Origin: Sphingomonas phyllosphaerae
GTDB lineage: Bacteria; Pseudomonadota; Alphaproteobacteria; Sphingomonadales; Sphingomonadaceae
Length of the DNA stretch: 64,000 nt
Assembly: GCA_036946405.1 (NCBI GenBank)
Contig: JAQIJC010000001.1
Coordinates: forward strand, 3,604,609-3,668,608
Direction of reading: 5' to 3'
Shown: piece after piece, positions 3,893-59,135 of the stretch
How the letters are laid out: each line of letters opens with the position of its first letter
Position numbering within the stretch: position 1 is the first letter of the stretch
Position numbers and translations under genes: made by a program
Notes under the pieces: generated by a model
Told to the model about the DNA's origin: nothing
Database searches by the model: none
What the model saw: the letters and a program-made list of their open reading frames with translations, nothing else

Positions 3893-3989
3893 CGTCATTC
3901 CCGCGAAGGCGGGAATCCAGACGCGCAGGTCCGTCGACAGACGCGCAACCGTCAGAGGTTCTGGATTCCCGCCTTCGCGGGAATGACGG
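3893..3989. repeat. Hairpin repeat, family A
   Basis: CGTCATTCCCGCGAAGGCGGGAATCCAG ... CTGGATTCCCGCCTTCGCGGGAATGACGG forms inverted arms. A second, near-identical copy lies at 16783..16876. Confidence 0.85.
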
Positions 3990-4152: not shown

Positions 4153-6465
4153 ATGCTCCGTTCGATGCTGCTCGCCGGCAGTGCGCTGTTCGCCGTGACC
4201 GCGACCCCGGCTTTCGCCGCCGATACGCCACCCGCCGCTGATCCCGCCACGGACACCCCCGCCGACACGCAGGGCAGCGAGGTCGTCGTGCTCGGCTTCG
4301 GACAGGCGCGGCAGGTGCAGACGATCACCGCCGCCGACATTGAACGCCAGACCCCCGGCACCACCCCGCTCAAGGCGCTCGCCAAGCTGCCGGGCGTCAA
4401 TTTCCAGTCAGCCGACGCGTTCGGGGCGTATGAATGGTCGAGCCGCATCTCGCTGCGTGGGTTCAACCAAAACCAGCTCGGCTTCACGCTCGACGGCATC
4501 CCGCTCGGCGACATGAGCTACGGCAACGCCAACGGCCTGCACATCAGCCGCGCGATCATCTCCGAGAACGTCGACGCCACCACCGTCGCGCAGGGTGCGG
4601 GCGCGCTGGGCGAGGCGTCGACCTCCAACCTCGGCGGCACGCTGCAATTCACCTCGCGTCGCCCGTCCGACGCATTCGGAATCGCCGCCTCCGGCACCTA
4701 TGGCTCGAACGACACGTACCGCGGCTTCGTGCGCGTCGACAGCGGCGACATCACCGGCAGCGGGCTGCGCGGCTATCTCAGCTACGGCTATCTGGAGGCC
4801 GGCAAGTGGAAGGGTGACGGCGTCCAGCGGCAGCATCAGGCGAACGCGAAGCTGGTGCAGGATTTCGGCGCACGCGGTTCGATCACCGCCTTCTTCAACT
4901 TTTCGGATCGCCGCGAGAACGACTATCAGGACCTCAGCCTCGAAATGATCCGGCGGCTGGGCTATGACGCCGACAATCTCAACCCCGATTACGCGACCGC
5001 GCTGCGCCTGGGCCAGGTCTATTGGAACCAGCAGACGCGCGCCGCCTCGGCGACCGCGACGCTCCCCTATCCCGGCGCCGGGCTCACCTATCCGTCACCC
5101 TATACCTCGGTCGACGATGCCTATTTCGACGCCGCCGGACTGCGCCGCGATTACCTGACCGGAATCACGATGAACGCGCCGGTCAATGACGCGGTCTCCT
5201 TCGCGATGACCGGCTATTATCATGGCAACGAGGGTCAGGGCGTGTGGGTCACGCCTTACGTCCGCACGCCGGGCGGTTCGGTCCTGTCGATCCGTACCAC
5301 CGAATATGCCATCGACCGCTTCGGCTCGATCGCGCGCGTGTCGGTGGAAACCGGTGCGAACCATCTCGAGGTGGGCGGCTGGTTCGAGGCGAACGGCTTC
5401 CGCCAGGCGCGCCGGTTCTACGGCTTGGCCGATCAGTCGACTCCGTCGCGCAAGGTGCTGTCGTTCCAGCGCGATCCGTTCGCAACCCAGTTCGACGTCG
5501 ACTTCCAGACCGACACGACGATGTATTACGTCAGCGATCGGCTGACGCTCGGACAGCTCACGCTGACCGGGGGCTGGAAGGGCTATCAGGTCGTCAACAA
5601 GGCGACGCCGCTGGTCGGCACGCTCGCCAGCGGCACGATCGATGCGAAGGACTGGTTTCTGCCACAGGTCGGCGCAGTCTATGGCTTCGGCGCGGCCGAG
5701 GCGTTCGTCACTTATACCGAGAACATGCGCGCCTTCGTCTCCTCGGCGACCGGTGCCTCGCCGTTCGCGACCACGCAGCAGGGCTTCGACGCGATCCGCG
5801 GCCGGTTGCGCCCCGAACGTTCGAAGACCGCCGAGGCCGGCGTGCGCTTCCGCGCCGGCGGGTTCCAGGGGTCGATCGCGGGCTATTACGTCGACTTCGC
5901 GAACCGTCTGCTCGCCTATACCAACGGCGCCGGGATCGTCGGCAATCCGGTGACGCTCCAGAACGTCGGCGGGGTCGAGAATTACGGCGCCGAGGCGACC
6001 GCGCTCTACAGGATCGCGCGCCCGCTCTCGATCTTCGCTTCCTATTCGTACAACCATTCCGAATATAAGGACGACGTGCTCGGCGCGAACGGCGCGCTCA
6101 TCACCGCGACGCGCGGCAGGACCGTGGTCGACAGCCCGCGCCACATGGCCAAGGGCGAGGTCGTCTATGACGACGGCCGCTTTCTCGCCCGGGTCGGCGC
6201 CGATTACATGAGCAAGCGCTACTTCACCTACACCAACGACCAGTCGGTCGGCGACCGGGTGCTGGTCGATGCGACGATCGGCTATACGATCGGCGACCTC
6301 GGCGGGCTGCACGGGGTGCGTATCGAGGGCAGCGCGACCAACCTGCTCGACAAGCGCTACGTCTCGACGATCGGCTCGAACGGCTACGGCGGCAGCGGCG
6401 ACAACCAGACGCTGCTCGCCGGCGCACCGCGCCAGTTCTTCGTGTCGCTGCGCACCGGCCTCTGA
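4153..6465 (+). CDS. TonB-dependent receptor
   Basis: 770 aa. Signal peptide MLRSMLLAGSALFAVTATPAFA, plug-domain motifs (PGVNF...ISLRGF...LDGIPLGD), and a long beta-barrel with a C-terminal hydrophobic strand. Confidence 0.9.
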   Translation: MLRSMLLAGSALFAVTATPAFAADTPPAADPATDTPADTQGSEVVVLGFGQARQVQTITAADIERQTPGTTPLKALAKLPGVNFQSADAFGAYEWSSRISLRGFNQNQLGFTLDGIPLGDMSYGNANGLHISRAIISENVDATTVAQGAGALGEASTSNLGGTLQFTSRRPSDAFGIAASGTYGSNDTYRGFVRVDSGDITGSGLRGYLSYGYLEAGKWKGDGVQRQHQANAKLVQDFGARGSITAFFNFSDRRENDYQDLSLEMIRRLGYDADNLNPDYATALRLGQVYWNQQTRAASATATLPYPGAGLTYPSPYTSVDDAYFDAAGLRRDYLTGITMNAPVNDAVSFAMTGYYHGNEGQGVWVTPYVRTPGGSVLSIRTTEYAIDRFGSIARVSVETGANHLEVGGWFEANGFRQARRFYGLADQSTPSRKVLSFQRDPFATQFDVDFQTDTTMYYVSDRLTLGQLTLTGGWKGYQVVNKATPLVGTLASGTIDAKDWFLPQVGAVYGFGAAEAFVTYTENMRAFVSSATGASPFATTQQGFDAIRGRLRPERSKTAEAGVRFRAGGFQGSIAGYYVDFANRLLAYTNGAGIVGNPVTLQNVGGVENYGAEATALYRIARPLSIFASYSYNHSEYKDDVLGANGALITATRGRTVVDSPRHMAKGEVVYDDGRFLARVGADYMSKRYFTYTNDQSVGDRVLVDATIGYTIGDLGGLHGVRIEGSATNLLDKRYVSTIGSNGYGGSGDNQTLLAGAPRQFFVSLRTGL

Positions 6466-11175: not shown

Positions 11176-11201
11176 GCTCGGTCGGAACCCCGCTCCTGAG
11201 C

Positions 11202-11231
11202 CGTCATTGCGAGCGTAGCGAAGCAATGACG
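11202..11231. repeat. Hairpin repeat, family B (minimal single hairpin)
   Basis: CCGTCATTGCGAGCGTAGCGAAGCAATGACG. Same arms as 25916..25993, 30864..30940 and 40516..40545. Confidence 0.8.
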
Positions 11232-15207: not shown

Positions 15208-15389
15208 CAGCGGGTTGCGCGGGGCACTACCGGCGTTCGGAACGCGGATGTTTGCGAAGTTCGCGCAAAACGAGCGTCGAGAGGGCGGTGGGGCAAGGGC
15301 ATGGGCGTCACGCCGGCCAGTCTAGCCGATGGGGTGCGGTGTAGGACAGGGGTGGTGTGGCAACGGCCAACGCTCCCCTCGCGCCGTCG

Positions 15390-15569
15390 CCCCTGCGGAG
15401 GCAGGGGCCTATGGCTGTGTCGTCCGGGCGGACGGGTTGACACAATAACGCCAGTTGTCGTGTCAACGTCGCGCGGCACAAGACAGACATGGGCCCCTGC
15501 CTGCGCAGGGGAGACGCCCCGCGCGGGTTGCACGCAACGACATACACATCGCCCCTGCCTCCGCAGGGG
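15390..15569. repeat. Three family F hairpins (CCCCTGC-N4-GCAGGGG)
   Basis: Copies at 15390-15407, 15494-15511 and 15552-15569, immediately downstream of the nadA stop. Confidence 0.75.
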
Positions 15570-16661: not shown

Positions 16662-16742
16662 CCATTCGCACTGAGCCTGTCGAAGTGCGTGTTACGTGCA
16701 CTCCGCTTGGCGCACGTGCTTCGACAAGCTCAGCACAAACGG
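16662..16742. repeat. Hairpin repeat, family D
   Basis: CCATTCGCACTGAGCCTGTCGAAG ... CTTCGACAAGCTCAGCACAAACGG. Other copies at 33466..33546, 36475..36542 and 57635..57704. Confidence 0.85.
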
Positions 16743-16782: not shown

Positions 16783-16876
16783 CGTCATCCCGCGAAGGCG
16801 GGGGTCCATACGCGCAGGTCTTCGCAATGGTCGAGACGTCAGAGGTTCTGGATTCCCGCCTTCGCGGGAATGACGG
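16783..16876. repeat. Hairpin repeat, family A (second copy)
   Basis: CGTCATCCCGCGAAGGCGGGGGTCCATACGCGCAGGTC ... GTCAGAGGTTCTGGATTCCCGCCTTCGCGGGAATGACGG. Colinear with 3893..3989. Confidence 0.85.
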
Positions 16877-18533: not shown

Positions 18534-18619
18534 CGTCACCCCGGCCTTGAGCCGGGGCCCCGCCTCTTCCTGGCGGCCGGAGGAAGAAACGGGATCCCGG
18601 CGCGAGGCCGGGATGACGG
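18534..18619. repeat. Hairpin repeat, family C (ORF-less copy)
   Basis: CGTCACCCCGGCCTTGAGCCGGGGCCCCGCCTCTTCC-loop-GGAAGAAACGGGATCCCGGCGCGAGGCCGGGATGACGG. Confidence 0.85.
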
Positions 18620-18631
18620 TGGAGGAGATGG

Positions 18632-20254
18632 TCAATCGCGGTCGGCGATGCGGCGGCGCATGTCGGCGAGTTCGCGGTCGAGCGAGGCCAGCGCCTCGGC
18701 GCGTTGCGCGTCGGTCAGGCCCGTATTGACCGCCAGCCCGGCACGGGCGCTTTCCAGACCGGCCAACGCGGCGCGGAGCGACTGACGACGCAGCTTGTCG
18801 GCGTCGAGGCGGACCCGCATCGCATCCATCTGCGCCGCGTGACGCGCCGCCCACGCCGCCTGTCGCTCGACACGCGCCGATTCGAAGGCGGCCCGACGTT
18901 CGATCTGTGCGGCCTGACGCTGCACGCGCGCGGCGTCGAGCGCGGCCTGTCGGGCGGCATTGCGCCCCAGTTCGGCGTCGCGTGCGCCCAGCTCGGCGAC
19001 GTCGGCGTCGCCGGGCACCGGCGGAACCGGCGGCATCGGCGGCATCGGCGGCACCGGCGGGACCGGCCCGGTGGCGGGCACCGGCGGGGCCGGTGGCGCC
19101 GGCGGCACGGGCGCAGGGTTGGCGGCGAGATACCGTTCGGCCGCGTCCCCGGTGTAGGTGGTGGTACGGCCGTCCCTGGTGACGATGACCGTCGTGTGCC
19201 GGCCCTTGTCCGTCTGCACGCTGATATGGCGGGTGCCCGGCTCCGTCGGCATGTCGGGCACGTCGGGCGTTTCGGGAGTCTCGGGCATCTCCGGCATCGT
19301 CATCTCGATCCCCGTCGCATCTTCCACTCCGGCGCGCACGCGCTCGGCGGCCTGCGTGCCGGAGGCGGTGAAGGCGAGGCCGCCGATCGCCAGCGCCATG
19401 ATCGCCATGCTGCCGGTCGCGGTCTGCGTGCGCGTGGCGTTCTTCTTGCCGAGCATCTTCAGTCTCCCTTTCAGATCCTTGACGGTGTTGAGGTGGCAGG
19501 CCGGCGACACCGCGCGACCGTGCGCGGCCTTGACGATCGCGCAGCCATAAGCGTGGCGCGCCGCCCCACCGGAGCGCGCCAGCACGCGCGCGTCATTGGC
19601 CATTTCCTGATCGGCGCGGAACTTGCGGAAGGCCGTCCACGCCAGCGGGTTGAACCAGTGCAGCGCGAGCACCGCCAGCGCGACCCAATTGGCGACCAGA
19701 TCGCCGCGCGCGTGGTGGCCCAGCTCGTGTTCGAGCGCGAGCGCGCGTTCCTCGGGATCGAAGCGTGCCGCGAAGTCGCGCGGGAAGGCGACGACGCGAT
19801 CGAAGACGCCGAAGGCGAGCGGGCCGTCGGTGGCGGCGCTCTGCACGACGGTGATCGAGCCAACGCGGTCGACCGCGATCCCAAGCCGCAGCACGTTGTA
19901 GCGGAAGCGGAGATAGCCGACCGCCTGCCACACGAGCAGCAGCGCCGCCCCGCCCAGCCACAGGCCCAGCGCGACCGGCGGCCAGCCGAGCGCGGTATGG
20001 GTCGTCTCGACCGGCAGCGTGGCGACCGGATCGCCGAGCATGATGACGATCGGCTCGGGCGCGGGCAGCACCGGCAGCGCCTCGCCGCGCCAGCCCTCGG
20101 GAAGCGGCGGCATCACCATCCGCAGCGCGGGCAGCGCCCACAGCGCATAGGCGACGCGCGCGCCGAACGCGTTGCGGACCGGTCCGCGCAGGACCAGAAC
20201 GGCCAGCATCAGCAGCGCCGACGCCAGCATCGCCTCGAGTGCCCAGCCGATCAT
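18632..20254 (-). CDS. M56 family (BlaR1-like) membrane metalloprotease / signal transducer
   Basis: 540 aa. Multi-TM N-terminus with HELGHHARGD (HExxH). The C-terminal part is Pro-rich (PPAPPAPPVP...PPMPPMPPVPPVP) followed by Ala/Arg/Gln coiled-coil-like repeats. There is no PBP-type sensor. Its ATG overlaps the regulator stop (ATGA). Confidence 0.85.
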   Translation of the reverse strand: MIGWALEAMLASALLMLAVLVLRGPVRNAFGARVAYALWALPALRMVMPPLPEGWRGEALPVLPAPEPIVIMLGDPVATLPVETTHTALGWPPVALGLWLGGAALLLVWQAVGYLRFRYNVLRLGIAVDRVGSITVVQSAATDGPLAFGVFDRVVAFPRDFAARFDPEERALALEHELGHHARGDLVANWVALAVLALHWFNPLAWTAFRKFRADQEMANDARVLARSGGAARHAYGCAIVKAAHGRAVSPACHLNTVKDLKGRLKMLGKKNATRTQTATGSMAIMALAIGGLAFTASGTQAAERVRAGVEDATGIEMTMPEMPETPETPDVPDMPTEPGTRHISVQTDKGRHTTVIVTRDGRTTTYTGDAAERYLAANPAPVPPAPPAPPVPATGPVPPVPPMPPMPPVPPVPGDADVAELGARDAELGRNAARQAALDAARVQRQAAQIERRAAFESARVERQAAWAARHAAQMDAMRVRLDADKLRRQSLRAALAGLESARAGLAVNTGLTDAQRAEALASLDRELADMRRRIADRD

Positions 20255-20619
20255 TGCTTGAGCGCCTTGAGCAGGGCTTCGATCTCGCTGATGTCCTGAT
20301 CGCTGAGCGCGTCGCGTTCGGCGAGGTGCGCTACGAGCGGGGTCAGCCGGCCGCCGAACAGCCGGTCGATCAGTCGTTCGGATTCACGCGCGACATAATC
20401 CTCGCGGCGCACCGCCGGGCTGTAGAGATAGCGGCGGCCGTCGACCTCGTGGCGGACGGCTTCCTTGCCGAGCAGCCGCCCGAGCAGGGTCTTGACGGTG
20501 GCGGCGCTCCAGCCGCGCTCCGGGTCCACCCGCTCGGCCACATCCTGCGCGGTGAGCGGGCTTTCGTCCCACAGCACCTCCATGACCGCATGTTCGGCAT
20601 CGCTGATCCGTTCGACCAC
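20251..20619 (-). CDS. BlaI/MecI/CopY family transcriptional repressor
   Basis: ORF 20251..20637. ...ISDAEHAVMEVLWDESPLTAQDVAERV...WSAATVKTLLGRLLGKEAV... is a winged-helix motif. I prefer GTG 20619, six nt after GGGAG. GTG 20637 is the longest option. Confidence 0.85.
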   Translation of the reverse strand: MVERISDAEHAVMEVLWDESPLTAQDVAERVDPERGWSAATVKTLLGRLLGKEAVRHEVDGRRYLYSPAVRREDYVARESERLIDRLFGGRLTPLVAHLAERDALSDQDISEIEALLKALKQ

Positions 20620-22430: not shown

Positions 22431-22461
22431 CCGTCGCCCCGGACCTGATCCGGGATGACGG
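22431..22461. repeat. Hairpin repeat, family C (single-arm copy)
   Basis: CCGTCGCCCCGGACCTGATCCGGGATGACGG. Confidence 0.7.
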
Positions 22462-25889: not shown

Positions 25890-25915
25890 AAGATTACGAA
25901 GCCGGCTCTCTCTTT

Positions 25916-25993
25916 CGTCATTGCGAGCGGAGCGAAGCAATCCGGGGCGTCCTGGTTCAACCCTGGATTGCTTCGCTACGCTCGCAATGACGG
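25916..25993. repeat. Hairpin repeat, family B
   Basis: CGTCATTGCGAGCGGAGCGAAGCAATCC-loop-GGATTGCTTCGCTACGCTCGCAATGACGG. Confidence 0.85.
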
Positions 25994-30856: not shown

Positions 30857-30863
30857 CGCGCAT

Positions 30864-30940
30864 CGTCATTGCGAGCGGAGCGAAGCAATCCAGGGCGTCC
30901 TGGTCCGGCTCTGGATTGCTTCGCTCCGCTCGCAATGACG
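30864..30940. repeat. Hairpin repeat, family B
   Basis: CGTCATTGCGAGCGGAGCGAAGCAATCC-loop-GGATTGCTTCGCTCCGCTCGCAATGACG. Confidence 0.85.
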
Positions 30941-30952
30941 TGATACTGGTAT

Positions 30953-31036
30953 CGTCGCCCCGGACTTGATCCGGGGCCCCGCTTGCCTTTGGCTCGGCAA
31001 GAAGAAGCGGGATCCCGGATCAGGTCCGGGATGACG
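30953..31036. repeat. Hairpin repeat, family C (ORF-less copy)
   Basis: CGTCGCCCCGGACTTGATCCGGGGCCCCGCTTGCC-loop-GAAGAAGCGGGATCCCGGATCAGGTCCGGGATGACG. Confidence 0.85.
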
Positions 31037-33465: not shown

Positions 33466-33546
33466 CCGTTCGTGCTGAGCCTGTCGAAGCACGTGCCGCA
33501 AGCATCGCGCTTCGGACACGCCCTTCGACAAGCTCAGGGCGAACGG
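33466..33546. repeat. Hairpin repeat, family D (between accB and accC)
   Basis: CCGTTCGTGCTGAGCCTGTCGAAG ... CTTCGACAAGCTCAGGGCGAACGG. Confidence 0.85.
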
Positions 33547-34915: not shown

Positions 34916-34951
34916 GATAAGCTCACTCTTCCGGCCATTCTCACCAATCTG

Positions 34952-35321
34952 CGTCGCCCCGGGCTTGACCCGGGGCCCCGCTTCTTCTCCCCTTCGCGCA
35001 TGGCTGGCGGCTGGGTCTACATCATGGCCGATCGCTATCGCGGGACGATGTATGTCGGCGTGACGGCTGATCTGGTCGCGCGGGTCGCGCAGCATCGCGC
35101 CGGCAAGGGATCGGAGTTCTGCGCTCATTACGGTTTGAACCGGCTCGTCTGGACCGAGTTCAGCGAGCAGATTGCCGCCTGCATTGCGCATGAGAAGCGC
35201 CTAAAACGCTGGCGACGCGAGTGGAAGTTCGCGTTGATCGAGCGTCACAATCCCGACTGGCTCGATTTGTTGGAGCGGTTCGCGTGAAGAAGCGGGGCCC
35301 CGGATCAAGTCCGGGGCGACG
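34952..35321. mobile_element. family C hairpin element carrying a GIY-YIG gene in its loop (candidate autonomous copy)
   Basis: The left arm 34952-34987 and right arm 35286-35321 are reverse complements at 34 of 36 positions. The ORF 35000..35287 fills the space that is a 10-20 nt loop in the other copies. Confidence 0.45.
35000..35287 (+). CDS. GIY-YIG nuclease family protein (95 aa)
   Basis: MAGGWVYIMADRYRGTMYVGVTADLVARVAQHRAGKGSEFCAHYGLNRLVWTEF...IAHEKRLKRWRREWKFALIERHNPDWLDL. GIY-YIG-type Tyr/Tyr/Arg/Glu positions are present. Confidence 0.85.
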   Translation: MAGGWVYIMADRYRGTMYVGVTADLVARVAQHRAGKGSEFCAHYGLNRLVWTEFSEQIAACIAHEKRLKRWRREWKFALIERHNPDWLDLLERFA

Positions 35322-35356
35322 AAACGGTTAGGTCCGAAGCGACGGCTTGAGTGAGT

Positions 35357-36370: not shown

Positions 36371-36474
36371 GCGCGCGCTTCTAGGGCGGAATGCGGGGTG
36401 GAGGAAATGACTTTGGAAGTCTGCGCGTCCGGCTTAGCTATGGGCGCTAATGTCGGGCCGTCGACCCACACCTG

Positions 36475-36542
36475 CCGTGCGTGCTGAGCTTGTCGAAGGG
36501 CGGATGAACGGGCACGTGCTTCGACAAGCTCAGCACGAACGG
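36475..36542. repeat. Hairpin repeat, family D
   Basis: CCGTGCGTGCTGAGCTTGTCGAAGGGC ... GTGCTTCGACAAGCTCAGCACGAACGG. Confidence 0.85.
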
Positions 36543-36599
36543 TCAGGGTGATGCCGGCGGGTCGGGAAGCGCTTTGGGTGACGATTGCGGGAGAAGACG

Positions 36600-40366: not shown

Positions 40367-40420
40367 TCTGGCGCCTCGTCAGCCTGGGTGTGACCCGGGA
40401 GGCGGATCGCTGAAATAGCC

Positions 40421-40506
40421 CGTCATCCCGGGCTTGACCCGGGATCCCGCTTCTACCGGCGACGGTCAGAAAGGAAGCGGGGTCCCGGATCAAGTCCGGG
40501 ACGACG
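40421..40506. repeat. Hairpin repeat, family C (ORF-less copy)
   Basis: CGTCATCCCGGGCTTGACCCGGGATCCCGCTTCT-loop-GGAAGCGGGGTCCCGGATCAAGTCCGGGACGACG. Confidence 0.85.
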
Positions 40507-40515
40507 AAGAAAGTC

Positions 40516-40545
40516 CGTCACTGCGAGCCTAGCGAAGCAATGACG
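40516..40545. repeat. Hairpin repeat, family B (minimal)
   Basis: CGTCACTGCGAGCCTAGCGAAGCAATGACG. Confidence 0.8.
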
Positions 40546-48708: not shown

Positions 48709-49778
48709 GCTCCCTCTCCCCGTTGGGGAGCATCGGGTGAACAGCGCGCCTCGCTGTTCAGATCAGGCTGGGAGCCTGATCGACCCGATGCTGGCTGGGG
48801 TGAGGGGTCGATGTCTCGCAGAGAGGTCGGGCTCGGTGAGACATGAGCCCCTCTCCCAACCCTCTCCCCGGAGGGGAGAGGGCTAATCGCCTCCACCAAA
48901 CCCACCCGCTGTATCTCCCATTCCAGTTCCACACCGCTCGCCGCCTTCACGCGCGCCCGGACATCCTCACCCAACGCCTCGATATCCGCACTGCTCGCGC
49001 TGCCGAGATTGAGCAGGAAGTTCGTATGCTTCTCGCTGACCTGCGCATCCCCCCGCCGCAACCCGCGACACCCGGCTTCATCGACCAAAGCCCAAGCCTT
49101 ATGCCCATCGGGATTCTTGAACGTCGACCCGCCGGTTTTCGAGCGCAGTGGCTGCGACGCCTCGCGCGCGGCGGCGATCCGGTCCATCTCGGCCTGGATC
49201 GCGGCGGGTTCGCCGGGCTGGCCGCGGAAGGTGGCGGCGATCACCACCGCGCCCTCCGGCAGGTCGGAATGGCGATAGGTATAGCCCAGCGCACCCGCCG
49301 CCAGCGTCCGCCGCTCGCCCGAGCGCAGCACCACTTCGGCCTCGACCAGCACGTCGGCGGTTTCGCGCCCATAGGCCCCGCCGTTCATCCGCACGAACCC
49401 GCCGACCGTGCCGGGGATCGAGCGCAGGAACTCCAGCCCCGCCACCCCGGCGTCGCGCGCGGTGGAGGATACGAGGATGCCGCTCGCCCCACCGCCGCAG
49501 CGCAGCGTCACCGCGTCGAGCGCGGCGGCGGTTGCGAACGGCTTGCCGAGCCGGACCACCACGCCGGGCACCCCGCCATCGCGAACGATCAGGTTCGAGC
49601 CGAGCCCGAGCGGCATGACCGGCACCGCCGGATCGAGCGCCGCGAGGAACGCGCACAAATCGTCGGCATCGGCGGGCTCGAACAGCCACTCCGCCGCCCC
49701 ACCCGCCTTGAACCAGACGAGTGGCGCCAGCGGGGCGTGCGGCGTCAGCCGCCCGCGGACCTCGGGAAGCGCGCTCAC
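48705..49778 (-). CDS. murB: UDP-N-acetylmuramate dehydrogenase with a repeat-encoded C-terminal tail
   Basis: ORF 48705..49817. LPEVRGRLTPHAPLAPLVWFKAGGAAE...GGAYG...FKNP...ELEWEIQRVG. After this, about 60 codons read through the family E repeat. I prefer GTG 49778 (GTGA overlap with the upstream micro-ORF). GTG 49817 is the longest option. Confidence 0.9.
   Translation of the reverse strand: MSALPEVRGRLTPHAPLAPLVWFKAGGAAEWLFEPADADDLCAFLAALDPAVPVMPLGLGSNLIVRDGGVPGVVVRLGKPFATAAALDAVTLRCGGGASGILVSSTARDAGVAGLEFLRSIPGTVGGFVRMNGGAYGRETADVLVEAEVVLRSGERRTLAAGALGYTYRHSDLPEGAVVIAATFRGQPGEPAAIQAEMDRIAAAREASQPLRSKTGGSTFKNPDGHKAWALVDEAGCRGLRRGDAQVSEKHTNFLLNLGSASSADIEALGEDVRARVKAASGVELEWEIQRVGLVEAISPLPSGERVGRGAHVSPSPTSLRDIDPSPQPASGRSGSQPDLNSEARCSPDAPQRGEGA
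48709..48883. repeat. Hairpin repeat, family E (composite, inside the 3' end of the murB ORF)
   Basis: GCTCCCTCTCCCCGTTGGGGAGC, nested hairpins, then GAGCCCCTCTCCCAACCCTCTCCCCGGAGGGGAGAGGGC. Same core as 54890..55000. Confidence 0.8.
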
Positions 49779-53759: not shown

Positions 53760-55147
53760 GCCAGCTCCTCCACCGCCGCGCGGAAGGCCGCGCCCCGTTG
53801 CTCGAAATCGCGAAACTGATCGAACGAGGCGGCGGCGGGCGACAGCAGCACCACGTCGCCGCGCTCGGCCTCCTGCGCCGCCAGCTTCACCGCGCGCTCC
53901 AGCGTCTCAACCTCGGCAACCGGCACCTGCCCGCGCAGCACCGCGGCGAAGCGCGGCCCGCCCTCACCGATCGTATAAGCACGCACGACATTGCCGAGGT
54001 GGGGCACGCAGGCATCGAGATCGTCGCCCTTCACCTTGCCGCCGAGAATCCAGTGGATGCGCGGGAAGGCGGCCAGCGCGGGCGCGGCGCTTTCGGGGTT
54101 GGTCGCCTTGCTGTCGTTGATCCACGCCACGCCGTTCAGCGTCGCGATCCGCTCCATGCGGTGCGGCAGCCCTGTGAAAGCTTCGAGCGCGCGCTCGATC
54201 GTCTCGGCGTCGACGCCCAGCGCCTCGGCGACCGCGACCGCGGCCTTGGCATTCTGTTCGTTGTGCGGGCCTTGCAGCGACGGCCAGCACGCCTGCTCGC
54301 CGGGCAGCGGCACGCCGTCGATGAAGCGGACGTTCAGCCCCTCCGGCGCGTTCGCGAGCACGTCATGCTCGGCCTCCGCTTCATAGTCGACGATCGCGAG
54401 GTGCGCGGGCGACTGCATCGCGAACAGCCGCGCCTTGCTGGCGGCGTACGCCTCGAAACCATCATAGCGATCGAGATGGTCGGGGGTGACGTTGAGCAGC
54501 ACCGCGACGTCGCAGTCGAGCGTCTGCGTCAGGTCGATCTGGTAGCTCGACAGTTCGAGCACGTAGACGCCGCCTTCCGGCAGCGGTTCCTGCGCGAGGA
54601 TCGGCAGGCCGATGTTACCGCCCATCAGCGTTGGGATGCCGGCGGTGTCGAGGATGTGGTGGACCAGCGCCGTCGTGGTCGACTTGCCGTTGGTGCCGGT
54701 GATCCCGACGACCTTGTGTGCGGGCAGGTCGGCGCGGGCCTGCGCGAACAGCTCGATGTCGCCGATGATCGGCACGTCCACGGCGCGCGCCGTCGCGGCG
54801 AGCGGGTGCGTGTTGAGCGGCACGCCGGGCGAGACGACGAGCGCGTCGACGGTGGCGAGGTCGAGTGTCTCGAGATCAATTACTTCAAGCCCTCTCCCCT
54901 CCGGGGAGAGGGTTGGGTGAGGGGCAGGGGTCTCACCGAGACCGTCTTCTCTGCGAGGCACCGACCCCTCACCCCAACCCTCTCCCCGGAGGGGAGAGGG
55001 AGTCAGGGCATCACGCTTGGCGACATCGCTATCCCACGCCAACACCGTCGCCCCGCCCGCGAGCAACGTACGAACGGTCGCGGCGCCCGAGCGTGCCAGC
55101 CCGAGCACCGCATAATGTTTCCCCGCCCAGGCGCGCGAGACGATCAT
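53756..55147 (-). CDS. murD: UDP-N-acetylmuramoylalanine--D-glutamate ligase with an in-frame 37-aa repeat-encoded insert
   Basis: ORF 53756..55231 trimmed to ATG 55147, which overlaps the mraY TGA (ATGA). [21 protein letters not shown]...[12 protein letters not shown].... Insert [37 protein letters not shown] lies in the N-terminal domain. Confidence 0.95.
54890..55000. repeat. Hairpin repeat, family E, exactly 111 nt, inside the murD coding sequence
   Basis: CCCTCTCCCCTCCGGGGAGAGGG-TTGGGTGAGGGG...CCCCTCACCCCAA-CCCTCTCCCCGGAGGGGAGAGGG. Both ends fall on murD codon boundaries. Confidence 0.85.
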
Positions 55148-57586: not shown

Positions 57587-57634
57587 GCGCGCGGCCTAGC
57601 GGAAGCGGCACGAGCAGGAACAGCGGCCACACCA

Positions 57635-57704
57635 CCGTTCGCCCTGAGCTTGTCGAAGGGCGTGTCACGCGCGACACGTGCTTCGACAAGCTCAGCACGA
57701 ACGG
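57635..57704. repeat. Hairpin repeat, family D (between murE and murF)
   Basis: CCGTTCGCCCTGAGCTTGTCGAAGGGC ... GTGCTTCGACAAGCTCAGCACGAACGG. Confidence 0.85.
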
Positions 57705-57719
57705 TGGCGTGGGCGGGGC

Positions 57720-59135
57720 TCATGCCGCCACCTCGCGCGCGACCGTCACGTCGTCGAACGGCAGCACGAGGTCGCCGACGATCTGTCCCTGCTCATGTCC
57801 CTTACCCGCGATCAGCACGATATCCCCCGCGCGCGCCTCCGCGACCGCCGCGGCGATCGCGGCGCGGCGGTCGCCGATCTCGCGCGCGCCGCGCGCACCT
57901 TCGAGGACCGCGCGGCGGATCGTCGCCGCGTCTTCGGTGCGCGGATTGTCATCGGTGACGATTACCACGTCGGCGCTCGCCACCGCGACCTGCCCCATCG
58001 GCACGCGCTTACCCGCGTCGCGGTCGCCGCCCGCGCCGAACACGAGGATCAGCCGCCCCTCGACATGCGGGCGCAGCGCTGCGCACGCCGCCTCGATCGC
58101 GTCCGGAGTGTGCGCATAATCGACATAGACCGGCACCCCGCCCGCGGTGATCGCGGCGCGCTCCAGCCGCCCGCGCACCGGCTGCAACCGCGCCAGCCCG
58201 GCGAGCGTCTGCGCGACATCGCCCCCGGTCGCAATCACCAGCCCCGCGGCGACCAGCGCGTTGGCGGCCTGATACCCGCCGATCAGCGGCAACGTGACAC
58301 GGTGGTCAACGCCGTCCGCCCGGATTGTCAATCCCTGCCCCAGCAAGGTCGGATCGCGCGCGATCAGCCGCAGGTCGTCGCCATGTTCGCCGACCGTGAA
58401 GACGCGGTTGCCGCGCTCGCGCGCGATATCGATCACACGTTCGGAGTTCGGATCGTCGACCCACACCACCGCAGTGCCGCCATCGGCCAGCACCTGCGCG
58501 AACAGCCGCAGCTTGGCGGTGAAATAGGCCGCCATATCGCCGTGATAGTCGAGATGGTCGCGGCTGAGATTGGTGAACGCCGCCGCACGCACCGGCAGTC
58601 CTTCGGTGCGATACTGGCTGAGCCCGTGGCTCGACGCCTCGAACGCCACATGCGTCACGCCTTCGCGCGCCAGCCCGGCGACGTTCGACAGGAAGGTGAC
58701 GACATCGGGCGTGGTCAGCCCGGTCACGACGCGCTCGTCGGCGGTGGCGACGCCCAGCGTACCGATCGACGCGGCATGATGCCCCGCCATCCGCCACAAT
58801 TGCCGCGTCATCTCGACCGTCGAGGTCTTGCCGTTGGTGCCGGTGACCGCCACCGCCGTCTCCGGGAACGGCGCGAAGAACCGTGCCGCCAGCCGCGCGA
58901 AGGTCTCGCGCGGATTATAGTCGCGGATGTGGAGCGCCCCTTCGACGCGCACGCCGGGCCGCGCGACGACCGCGACCGCGCCGGCCTCGATCGCGGCCGG
59001 GATGAAGTCCTCGCCGTTCACCCGCGCACCTTCGAACGCGCCGAAGATCGTCCCCGGCGCGACCTTGCGGTGATCGATCGCGAATCCCGTGATCGCCTGC
59101 TCGCCGCCGTGCTCGACCAGTTGCGACAGCTTCAT
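57720..59135 (-). CDS. murE: UDP-N-acetylmuramoyl-L-alanyl-D-glutamate--2,6-diaminopimelate ligase
   Basis: ORF 57720..59489 trimmed to ATG 59135 (MKLSQLVEHGG...). VTGTNGKTST...DYAHTPDA...GAGGDRDAGKR. Confidence 0.95.
   Translation of the reverse strand: MKLSQLVEHGGEQAITGFAIDHRKVAPGTIFGAFEGARVNGEDFIPAAIEAGAVAVVARPGVRVEGALHIRDYNPRETFARLAARFFAPFPETAVAVTGTNGKTSTVEMTRQLWRMAGHHAASIGTLGVATADERVVTGLTTPDVVTFLSNVAGLAREGVTHVAFEASSHGLSQYRTEGLPVRAAAFTNLSRDHLDYHGDMAAYFTAKLRLFAQVLADGGTAVVWVDDPNSERVIDIARERGNRVFTVGEHGDDLRLIARDPTLLGQGLTIRADGVDHRVTLPLIGGYQAANALVAAGLVIATGGDVAQTLAGLARLQPVRGRLERAAITAGGVPVYVDYAHTPDAIEAACAALRPHVEGRLILVFGAGGDRDAGKRVPMGQVAVASADVVIVTDDNPRTEDAATIRRAVLEGARGAREIGDRRAAIAAAVAEARAGDIVLIAGKGHEQGQIVGDLVLPFDDVTVAREVAA

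Follow-up and report, generated by a model that had tools for sequence, protein, structure and literature searches.

A Small Nuclease Gene Lies between Two Inverted Hairpin Repeats

The 64,000-nt stretch of Sphingomonas phyllosphaerae DNA analyzed here (the window, to which all coordinates refer unless another locus is named) carries, in intergenic DNA with accC on one side and a GH3 gene on the other, a small nuclease gene enclosed by two inverted copies of a hairpin repeat. The left arm (34952–34987, + strand) reads CGTC, GC, an 8-bp stem with a CTTGA loop, and then GCCCCGCTTCTTC, and it forms a local hairpin on folding; the right arm (35286–35321) is the same repeat, reading forward on the − strand. 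The left end therefore presents the conserved hairpin with its CTTGA loop on the + strand, and the right end presents it on the − strand. We refer to the hairpin repeat of these arms as family C, and to the enclosed gene (35000–35287, + strand), an intact open reading frame (ORF) for a 95-aa single-domain GIY-YIG nuclease, as the ssn-like gene. An earlier note on this DNA had described this arrangement, and its account holds in each particular: the two arms are reverse complements at 34 of 36 positions, the ORF starts 12 nt past the left arm, and its TGA stop codon overlaps the right arm by 2 nt. A search of the window for the arm sequence, allowing three mismatches, returned exactly these two copies, with 0 expected from 100 shuffles. 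The left arm, which lies directly downstream of accC, scores as terminator-like, and a search for a sigma-70 promoter for the ssn-like gene found none.

The protein matches Pfam family PF01541 (GIY-YIG) over residues 4–76 with E = 1e-10, its sole Pfam match, and the gene is the only GIY-YIG gene in the window. AlphaFold predicts one compact domain with a predicted local distance difference test (pLDDT) score of 93.6, and the top PDB matches in a fold search are all GIY-YIG domains, the Slx1 nuclease domain among them. The closest solved structure is the UPF0213/YhbQ-type protein BH0048 (PDB code 1ZG2), recovered both by profile (E = 3.8e-6) and by fold, and an NCBIfam search with the window protein matched no family. 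Many sphingomonad relatives share 69–87% identity with it, and the wider protein family comprises 13,556 clusters at 50% identity (E up to 1e-3). All 22 sequences of the family alignment share three residues, Y7, Y18, and E65. The ratio of nonsynonymous to synonymous substitution (dN/dS) has a median of 0.10, and the same value is obtained between the window and its relative L004, indicating strong purifying selection on the gene. Stop codons interrupt 4 of 80 gene copies, so that 95% of the ORFs are intact; the nonsense mutations, in L005 (W51*), L007 (Y18*), L044, and L058, occur in copies whose arms are intact.

The Conserved Structure Is the Small Hairpin inside Each Arm

The two positions at which the window's arms differ are compensatory, as the earlier note had proposed, and form the loop-closing pair of each arm's own small hairpin (G-C on the left, A-T on the right). 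Among 85 unique arms from 81 genomes, this pair is GC in 50, AT in 23, and CG in 9, and it is paired in 83 of the 85. When both bases of a stem pair differ between the two arms of one element, the pair within the arm still forms in 47 cases and is lost in 3. The structure that is maintained is the small hairpin inside each arm; a long duplex between the arms was rejected as the conserved structure on the same covariation, which favors local hairpins 47 to 3.

The conserved core comprises 31 nt with the family consensus CGTCACCCCGGGCTTGACCCGGGGTCCCGCT, that is, CGTCACCCCGGG-CTTGA-CCCGGGGTCCCGCT, while arm bases 32–36 show lineage-specific conservation beyond this core. Two elements of the core are near-invariant in the 85 unique arms, GTC at positions 2–4 and C at position 26, and both match published determinants of cleavage and binding in the Ssn system described below.

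Gene and Arms Are Associated across Sphingomonads and in Distant Relatives

We surveyed 80 sphingomonad genomes, one per species and from about ten genera, and counted a gene as bracketed when the inverted repeat around it scored at least 19. The same arms bracket 66 of the 76 testable homologue loci, compared with 0 of 204 random control positions in the same loci, where the maximum score was 12. With the arms identified by their hairpin core, 65 of 78 loci display the canonical arm-gene-arm order, with most others carrying extra arms, and the orientation is “+” on the left and “−” on the right. The association extends to 71 metagenomic loci encoding distant relatives (about 45–50% identity to the window protein), where arms scoring at least 14 were found in 44 of 71 loci, versus 0 of 93 controls. 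The stems of these distant arms differ within a common layout, (C/T)GTCAT-stem-short loop-stem-ATCCAG, many of them reading GTCATTCCCGCGAAAGCGGGAATCCAG, and the arm sequences vary along with the protein subfamily. The gene-arm association is beyond chance, and gene and hairpin repeat constitute a genuine functional pair. This is the outcome that the earlier note had proposed to look for, namely that homologues should share the bracketing arms.

The spacing of paired arms is strictly bimodal, with 18 pairs at 10–75 nt, 64 pairs at 308–443 nt, and none between. In the 1.44 Mb of loci examined, 18 short pairs and 55 unpaired arms stand against roughly one gene per genome, and only one further paralogue was found, a divergent pseudogene with its own variant arms. 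The same 1.44 Mb contains no partial-deletion intermediates of 100–280 nt, and the family arms never enclose any other gene. Carriage on plasmids is confined to 13 of 72,556 records, all of them large secondary replicons; the ssn unit is not typical plasmid cargo.

Two individual loci may be recorded here. In a Novosphingobium metagenome-assembled genome (MAG), an ssn pseudogene, interrupted by an in-frame TAG, is flanked by two complete doublets and not by single arms (L044, 4833–5344). A 1.7-kb contig from a MAG binned as Bacteroidota (L010, JANNWD010000018.1) carries a typical sphingomonad element with the same arms and a protein 75% identical to that of the window, which probably reflects a binning error rather than cross-phylum transfer.

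The Locus Probably Belongs to the Published Ssn/SRM System

Chenal et al. (Nat Commun 2025, PMC11893778) reported that genes for small single-domain GIY-YIG proteins (CDD cd10448) are flanked by the NTS repeat of Neisseria (CGTCATTCCCGCGMAVGCGGGAATCYRG) and by SRM, the degenerate form of that repeat, at least one repeat being present nearby in 71% of homologues and on both sides in 42%. Purified SsnA binds the hairpin only as single-stranded DNA (ssDNA) and in one orientation only, binds neither RNA nor double-stranded DNA (dsDNA), and cuts a few nucleotides upstream of the hairpin, in the variable flank outside it; its residues Y6, Y17, and E64 are essential (PMC11893778). Homologues from other Neisseria species and from Wolbachia cleave their own repeats, and in N. 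meningitidis the enzyme reduces transformation by repeat-carrying DNA, the sole function demonstrated so far (PMC11893778). Sphingomonas and Rhizorhabdus are named in that paper as repeat-rich, and its Discussion likens the repeat-gene-repeat layout to an insertion sequence (IS), drawing parallels to IS200/IS605 and to repetitive extragenic palindromic (REP) sequences and bacterial interspersed mosaic elements (REP/BIME). The remark in the earlier note that such an arrangement was not known to have been shown for small GIY-YIG proteins is accordingly outdated, as the association, the copy-number correlation, the biochemistry, and the IS/REP analogy are all contained in this paper. A further expectation of that note, that repeat number should correlate with gene presence across genomes, matches a published correlation: among genomes in which more than 200 repeats were counted, 81% have a homologue (PMC11893778).

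The S. phyllosphaerae locus resembles the N. meningitidis Ssn/NTS locus in several respects. Both encode a single-domain GIY-YIG protein of about 94–100 aa, both place the gene between inverted hairpin repeats of the form CGTCA(T/C)-stem-short loop-stem-conserved C, and both genomes contain many gene-less copies. The window protein is 42–49% identical (E of 1e-24 to 1e-32) to eight proteins that have canonical NTS as flanking arms, and the spacing of Y7, Y18, and E65 equals that of Y6, Y17, and E64 in N. meningitidis SsnA, which makes these residues putative equivalents by position. The published degenerate SRM motif, used here as HGTCWYN(0-2)YYVSBRHN(0-5)WNVSBRGN(0-2)RNCYNB, fits the family consensus and 133 of 219 family arms (164 of 219 with position 5 relaxed). 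Strict matches to it occur 9 times in the window, compared with 0.5 expected from shuffles, and three of these are exact Neisseria NTS. The sphingomonad arms differ from Neisseria NTS in their stem (CCCCGGG/CCCGGGG) and loop (CTTGA) and in carrying a lineage-specific inner extension (CCCGCTTCTTC). The gene-less copies differ as well, being mostly tight inverted doublets in sphingomonads, with the gene exactly at the place of the 12–14-nt doublet spacer.

Because the window protein is homologous to NTS-flanked relatives and shares these features with the Neisseria system, we consider it quite probable that the locus belongs, as a sphingomonad representative, to the Ssn/SRM system described in 2025 and is not a new system. 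Three points weigh against this assignment. It is made indirectly, by way of NTS-flanked relatives and shared features, the published criterion for family homology being E < 1e-10 to SsnA itself (PMC11893778). The arms of the window's own gene read CGTCGC, with G at the W of position 5, and thus miss the SRM motif by one base. Finally, the published homologues differ among themselves in cut position and cross-specificity (PMC11893778).

Gene-Less Copies of the Arms in the Window

The gene-less copies of the same arms to which the earlier note had drawn attention were also recovered. Besides the gene copy, the window contains four family-C loci, comprising three arm pairs with 12–14 nt between the arms and one single hairpin. 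The pair at 18534–18619, an inverted doublet with a 13-nt spacer, folds with −40.5 kcal/mol (z = −6.2). The pair at 30953–31036 has a 12-nt spacer and a right arm that is a strict SRM match, and its orthologous site is also occupied in L004, L005, and L007. The pair at 40421–40506 has a 14-nt spacer and a left arm that is a strict SRM match, and its orthologous site is also occupied in L004–L007. Folded alone, the short pairs form long hairpins of −35 to −40 kcal/mol with z = −6 to −8. A permissive Rfam scan of the 30–41-kb region gave no match above threshold, the palindromes matching only sub-threshold miRNA-type (microRNA-type) hairpin models.

The single hairpin (22432–22460, + strand; CGTCGCCCCGGA-CCTGA-TCCGGGATGACG) looks like a fusion of a left arm's 5′ half with a right arm's 3′ half and may thus be a deletion derivative of a pair, since an analogous hairpin at 40515–40545 is a central deletion of a palindrome that is complete in L004–L007. 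A degenerate hairpin of the same type (CGTCAGCCTGGGTGTGACCCGGGAGGCGG) lies at 40377–40405 (+ strand) and is absent from L004. In the L005 orthologue of the pair at 30953–31036 (about 5990–6160 in that locus), the loops of both small hairpins carry a 23-nt insertion, CCCTTCGACAAGCTCAGGAGAGC in one arm and the reverse complement in the other as its mirror image, and the inserted block is similar to the window's CCTGAGCTTGTCGAAGGG repeat family. Since the change in one arm is mirrored in the other, these insertions suggest either that one arm was templated on the other or that the insertion was intrinsically symmetric.

A Model for the Action of the Nuclease on Its Arms

By homology to characterized SsnA proteins, the most likely mechanism for the window's enzyme would be binding of the arm followed by a nick 5′ of CGTC. 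In this model, arm DNA that becomes single-stranded would fold its 31-nt core into an 8-bp hairpin, preceded 5′ by CGTC and followed 3′ by CC, and the protein would bind this hairpin in one strand orientation only. The bound protein would then introduce a nick into the variable flank of that strand, a few nucleotides 5′ of CGTC. Given the inverted orientation of the arms, the two predicted cuts would fall just outside the unit and on opposite strands. The gene-less pairs beginning at 18534, 30953, and 40421, together with the single hairpin at 22432, would represent further genomic substrates of the same enzyme.

Comparative Evidence on the Mobility and History of the Unit

The ends of the unit are sharp: arm columns are at least 90% conserved, above the level of the gene's third codon positions, and conservation drops to background exactly at CGTC/GACG. 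No direct repeat of 2 nt or more is present at the ends of 59 of 63 gene-carrying units or of 17 of 18 short pairs, and inverted complementarity past CGTC/GACG is for the most part what chance would give, a few longer cases aside. To the left, the flank is poor in G and rich in pyrimidines, with T at −1 in 44 of 81 loci; to the right, it is poor in C and rich in purines. A liberal criterion groups the 81 loci into at least 46 flanking-gene contexts, and when homologous genes must be present on both flanks the number rises to 64. Several of these contexts occur within the genus Sphingomonas alone.

At the accC-GH3 site, the gene form is common to five related genomes, in two of which (L005 and L007) the ORF carries the nonsense mutations given above. 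Sphingomonas sp. Leaf231 has the same accC-GH3 gene order and, at the exact orthologous position, only a decayed gene-less pair. Downstream of accC, S. sanguinis has an ordinary terminator and S. adhaesiva an NTS-like doublet of a different family. The accC|GH3 junction (34916–35356, compared with L164, L166, and L167) breaks synteny with other Sphingomonas: after accC, S. yunnanensis, S. adhaesiva, and S. sanguinis instead carry an ArsC-family gene and further genes, to which S. adhaesiva adds a methyltransferase and a NotI-like restriction gene.

These comparative data support the view that the gene-plus-arms unit behaves as a discrete, relocatable module, and the proposition that it is or was mobile is well supported by them. 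We infer that it is an old, rarely moving mobile module that is now largely maintained by selection. Two observations temper this reading. The number of contexts could partly reflect rearrangement at repeat-rich breakpoints and not transposition, and the accC|GH3 junction is itself a synteny breakpoint. In addition, the gene-less family-C copies that could be compared are fixed in four related genomes, with no recent movement seen; the presence/absence polymorphism that the earlier note had proposed to look for among close genomes did not appear among these short copies, which are old and fixed at orthologous sites.

Relation to Known Systems and Rival Explanations

The proposal of the earlier note, that the locus is a nuclease-based analogue of the REP/REPIN system with its REP-associated tyrosine transposase (RAYT), together termed a REPtron, survives in part. 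As in a REPtron, inverted hairpin repeats enclose a single-copy gene, intergenic DNA contains numerous scattered singlets and inverted doublets that lack the gene, and the hairpin structure is conserved through covariation; the functional gene-repeat pair and the relocatable module thus stand, on the bracketed loci, the sharp ends, the diverse contexts, and the one gene versus many copies. The part that is unsupported is the nuclease as mobilizer. RAYT is an HUH/Y1 transposase that acts through a covalent 5′-phosphotyrosine intermediate, whereas Pfam and fold searches with the window gene return GIY-YIG only. The unit also resembles IS200/IS605 elements, whose enzyme recognizes subterminal ssDNA hairpins and cuts at a distance, likewise with no target-site duplication, but there the catalytic fold is different and both end hairpins act on the same strand, permitting single-strand excision, in contrast to the inverted arms found here. 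A classical terminal inverted repeat (TIR) transposon or miniature inverted-repeat transposable element (MITE) would leave the target-site duplications that nearly all of these units and pairs lack. The UPF0213/YhbQ-type proteins are of the same size and likewise consist of a single GIY-YIG domain, but the relation is distant (29% identity over 79 columns), and no association of that family with flanking hairpin repeats is known to us. Homing endonucleases of the I-TevI type and Slx1, which is structure-specific for branched DNA, share the catalytic fold but work through additional DNA-binding domains or with partner proteins, on DNA that is duplex or branched; the window protein is a bare nuclease domain of 95 aa, and its gene lies in intergenic DNA, where a homing endonuclease gene would be expected within an intron or at a defined allelic target.

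The question that these comparisons leave is what moves the unit. An autonomous element, in which the GIY-YIG nuclease mobilizes itself and, in trans, the gene-less arm pairs in the manner of RAYTs and REPINs, is possible but doubtful. The layout resembles terminal inverted repeats with sharp ends, a single extra paralogue accompanies 18 short pairs and 55 unpaired arms, the contexts are many even within Sphingomonas, the divergent paralogue has its own variant arms and distant subfamilies have co-varying ones, one site holds the gene form or the gene-less form depending on the genome, and the authors of PMC11893778 raised the same hypothesis. Yet transposition is demonstrated nowhere in the literature that we found, which includes no paper on the mobility of these modules later than that of Chenal et al. 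GIY-YIG nucleases hydrolyze DNA without a covalent protein-DNA intermediate. Strand transfer would for that reason need host functions, and because the predicted cuts lie on opposite strands, the single-strand excision route of IS200/IS605 would be inapplicable. This hydrolytic chemistry, the opposite-strand predicted cuts, and the lack of target duplication together make the nuclease mechanistically awkward as a mobilizer. The missing 100–280-nt deletion intermediates and the old, fixed short copies also speak against it, the dN/dS and the proportion of intact ORFs are no less compatible with a gene maintained by the host than with a selfish gene, and the only function demonstrated so far, that in Neisseria, is restriction of incoming transforming ssDNA. 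We would put forward with similar reserve the bolder version, a new class of mobile element in which a hydrolytic, ssDNA-specific GIY-YIG nuclease moves itself and the doublets while the arms are regenerated or homogenized by foldback templating, at which the mirror-image 23-nt insertions in the L005 copy hint. Since mobilization by the nuclease is only hypothesized in PMC11893778, its demonstration, if true, would still be new.

A homing-like process, in which the gene invades, or is lost from, primary gene-less pairs through cleavage and recombinational repair from a gene-carrying copy, would account for the strictly bimodal spacing of the arms, for the accC-GH3 site, where five genomes carry the gene and Leaf231 has a gene-less pair, and for the nonsense-mutated copies with intact arms, which resemble the decay phase of homing endonucleases. 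We nevertheless consider it unlikely, as the published cut falls outside the hairpin and not between the arms, arms of 31–36 nt are short for homologous repair, nearly all pairs are unoccupied while the gene remains low-copy, the loops of gene-less pairs have no sequence in common with the gene-proximal junctions, and the gene is under strong purifying selection. That the gene is a passenger, having landed inside one of many hairpin pairs spread by another enzyme such as a Y1/HUH RAYT-type transposase elsewhere, draws on the window's other palindromic repeat families, some of which are presence/absence-polymorphic with no linked gene; it is made very improbable by the gene-arm link in sphingomonad and distant loci alike, with arms co-changing with protein subfamily, by the absence of any other gene between family arms, and by the finding that each tested Ssn protein binds and cuts its own flanking repeat (PMC11893778). 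Hardly more credible is a role at the level of RNA or transcription, as a terminator, a pairing between 5′ and 3′ untranslated regions (UTRs), or an autoregulatory site. The terminator-like left arm directly past accC and the proximity of the arms to the start codon (within 12 nt) and stop codon (overlapping) would fit such a role, but many copies are present with no gene at all, one transcript would carry only one hairpin in the conserved orientation as the two lie on opposite strands, published SsnA binds neither RNA nor dsDNA (PMC11893778), and no Rfam family reaches threshold.

Other Repeats in the Window

Several further repeat families occur in the window, and in the loci examined none of its other hairpin families was ever found to bracket a gene-sized insert. 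Inverted doublets at 3893–3988 and 16783–16875, with mutually related spacers of about 40 nt, have arms that are exact or near-exact Neisseria NTS (CGTCATTCCCGCGAAGGCGGGAATCCAG); they represent a second Ssn-type repeat family in the same genome, with no cognate gene in the window. A palindrome family CGTCATTGCGAGCGGAGCGAAGCAATCC... is found at 11201–11231, 25915–25992, 30863–30940, and 40515–40545, the last being the central deletion described above. Its layout is CGTCAT...ATCC with a long loop, on account of which it fails the strict SRM motif, and the copy at 25915–25992 is absent from L004. A second palindrome family, CCGTTCGCCCTGAGCTTGTCGAAGGGC, occurs at 16662–16742, 33466–33546, 36513–36545, and 57614–57725. 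The copy at 33466–33546, between accB and accC, is absent from all four syntenic genomes, and 36448–36570 is absent from three, indicating recent presence/absence polymorphism in this family.

A repeat of about 92 nt, present in inverted orientation at 48793–48884 and 54888–54979 (6 kb apart, 88% complementary) and containing GCCCCTC.CCCAACCCTCTCCCCGGAGGGGAGAGGGC, appears to be another palindromic intergenic repeat family. An inverted repeat with 60-nt arms at 15375–15526, with CGTCGCCCCTGCGGAGGCAGGGGCC, is another element of the CGTC-hairpin type. Lastly, a tandem array with a 9-nt period (GGCGGCATC/GGCGGCACC type) at 19003–19113 lies inside the overlapping ORFs 18632–20254 (− strand) and 18704–20299 (+ strand), and is probably a Gly/Pro-rich coding repeat.

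Implications

In sphingomonads, the unit has two likeliest candidate roles, which may be combined: controlling ssDNA that enters the cell or is being replicated, and spreading the repeat family. The comparisons suggest that inverted doublets are the usual gene-less form of the repeat in these bacteria and that the gene occupies the position of the doublet spacer. To our knowledge, no site-specific nucleases other than the Ssn enzymes cut ssDNA exclusively, and each Ssn subfamily has its own hairpin specificity. The sphingomonad enzyme-site pair, consisting of the 95-aa protein and the 31-nt site CGTCRCCCCGGG-CTTGA-CCCGGGGYCCCGCT, could extend the ssDNA toolbox. The 2025 paper raises the question of whether the repeat families were seeded by these modules as present or former mobile elements, and the comparative data bear on it through the sharp ends of the unit, its lack of target duplication, its occurrence in dozens of contexts, the purifying selection on its gene, and the gene and gene-less forms at one site.

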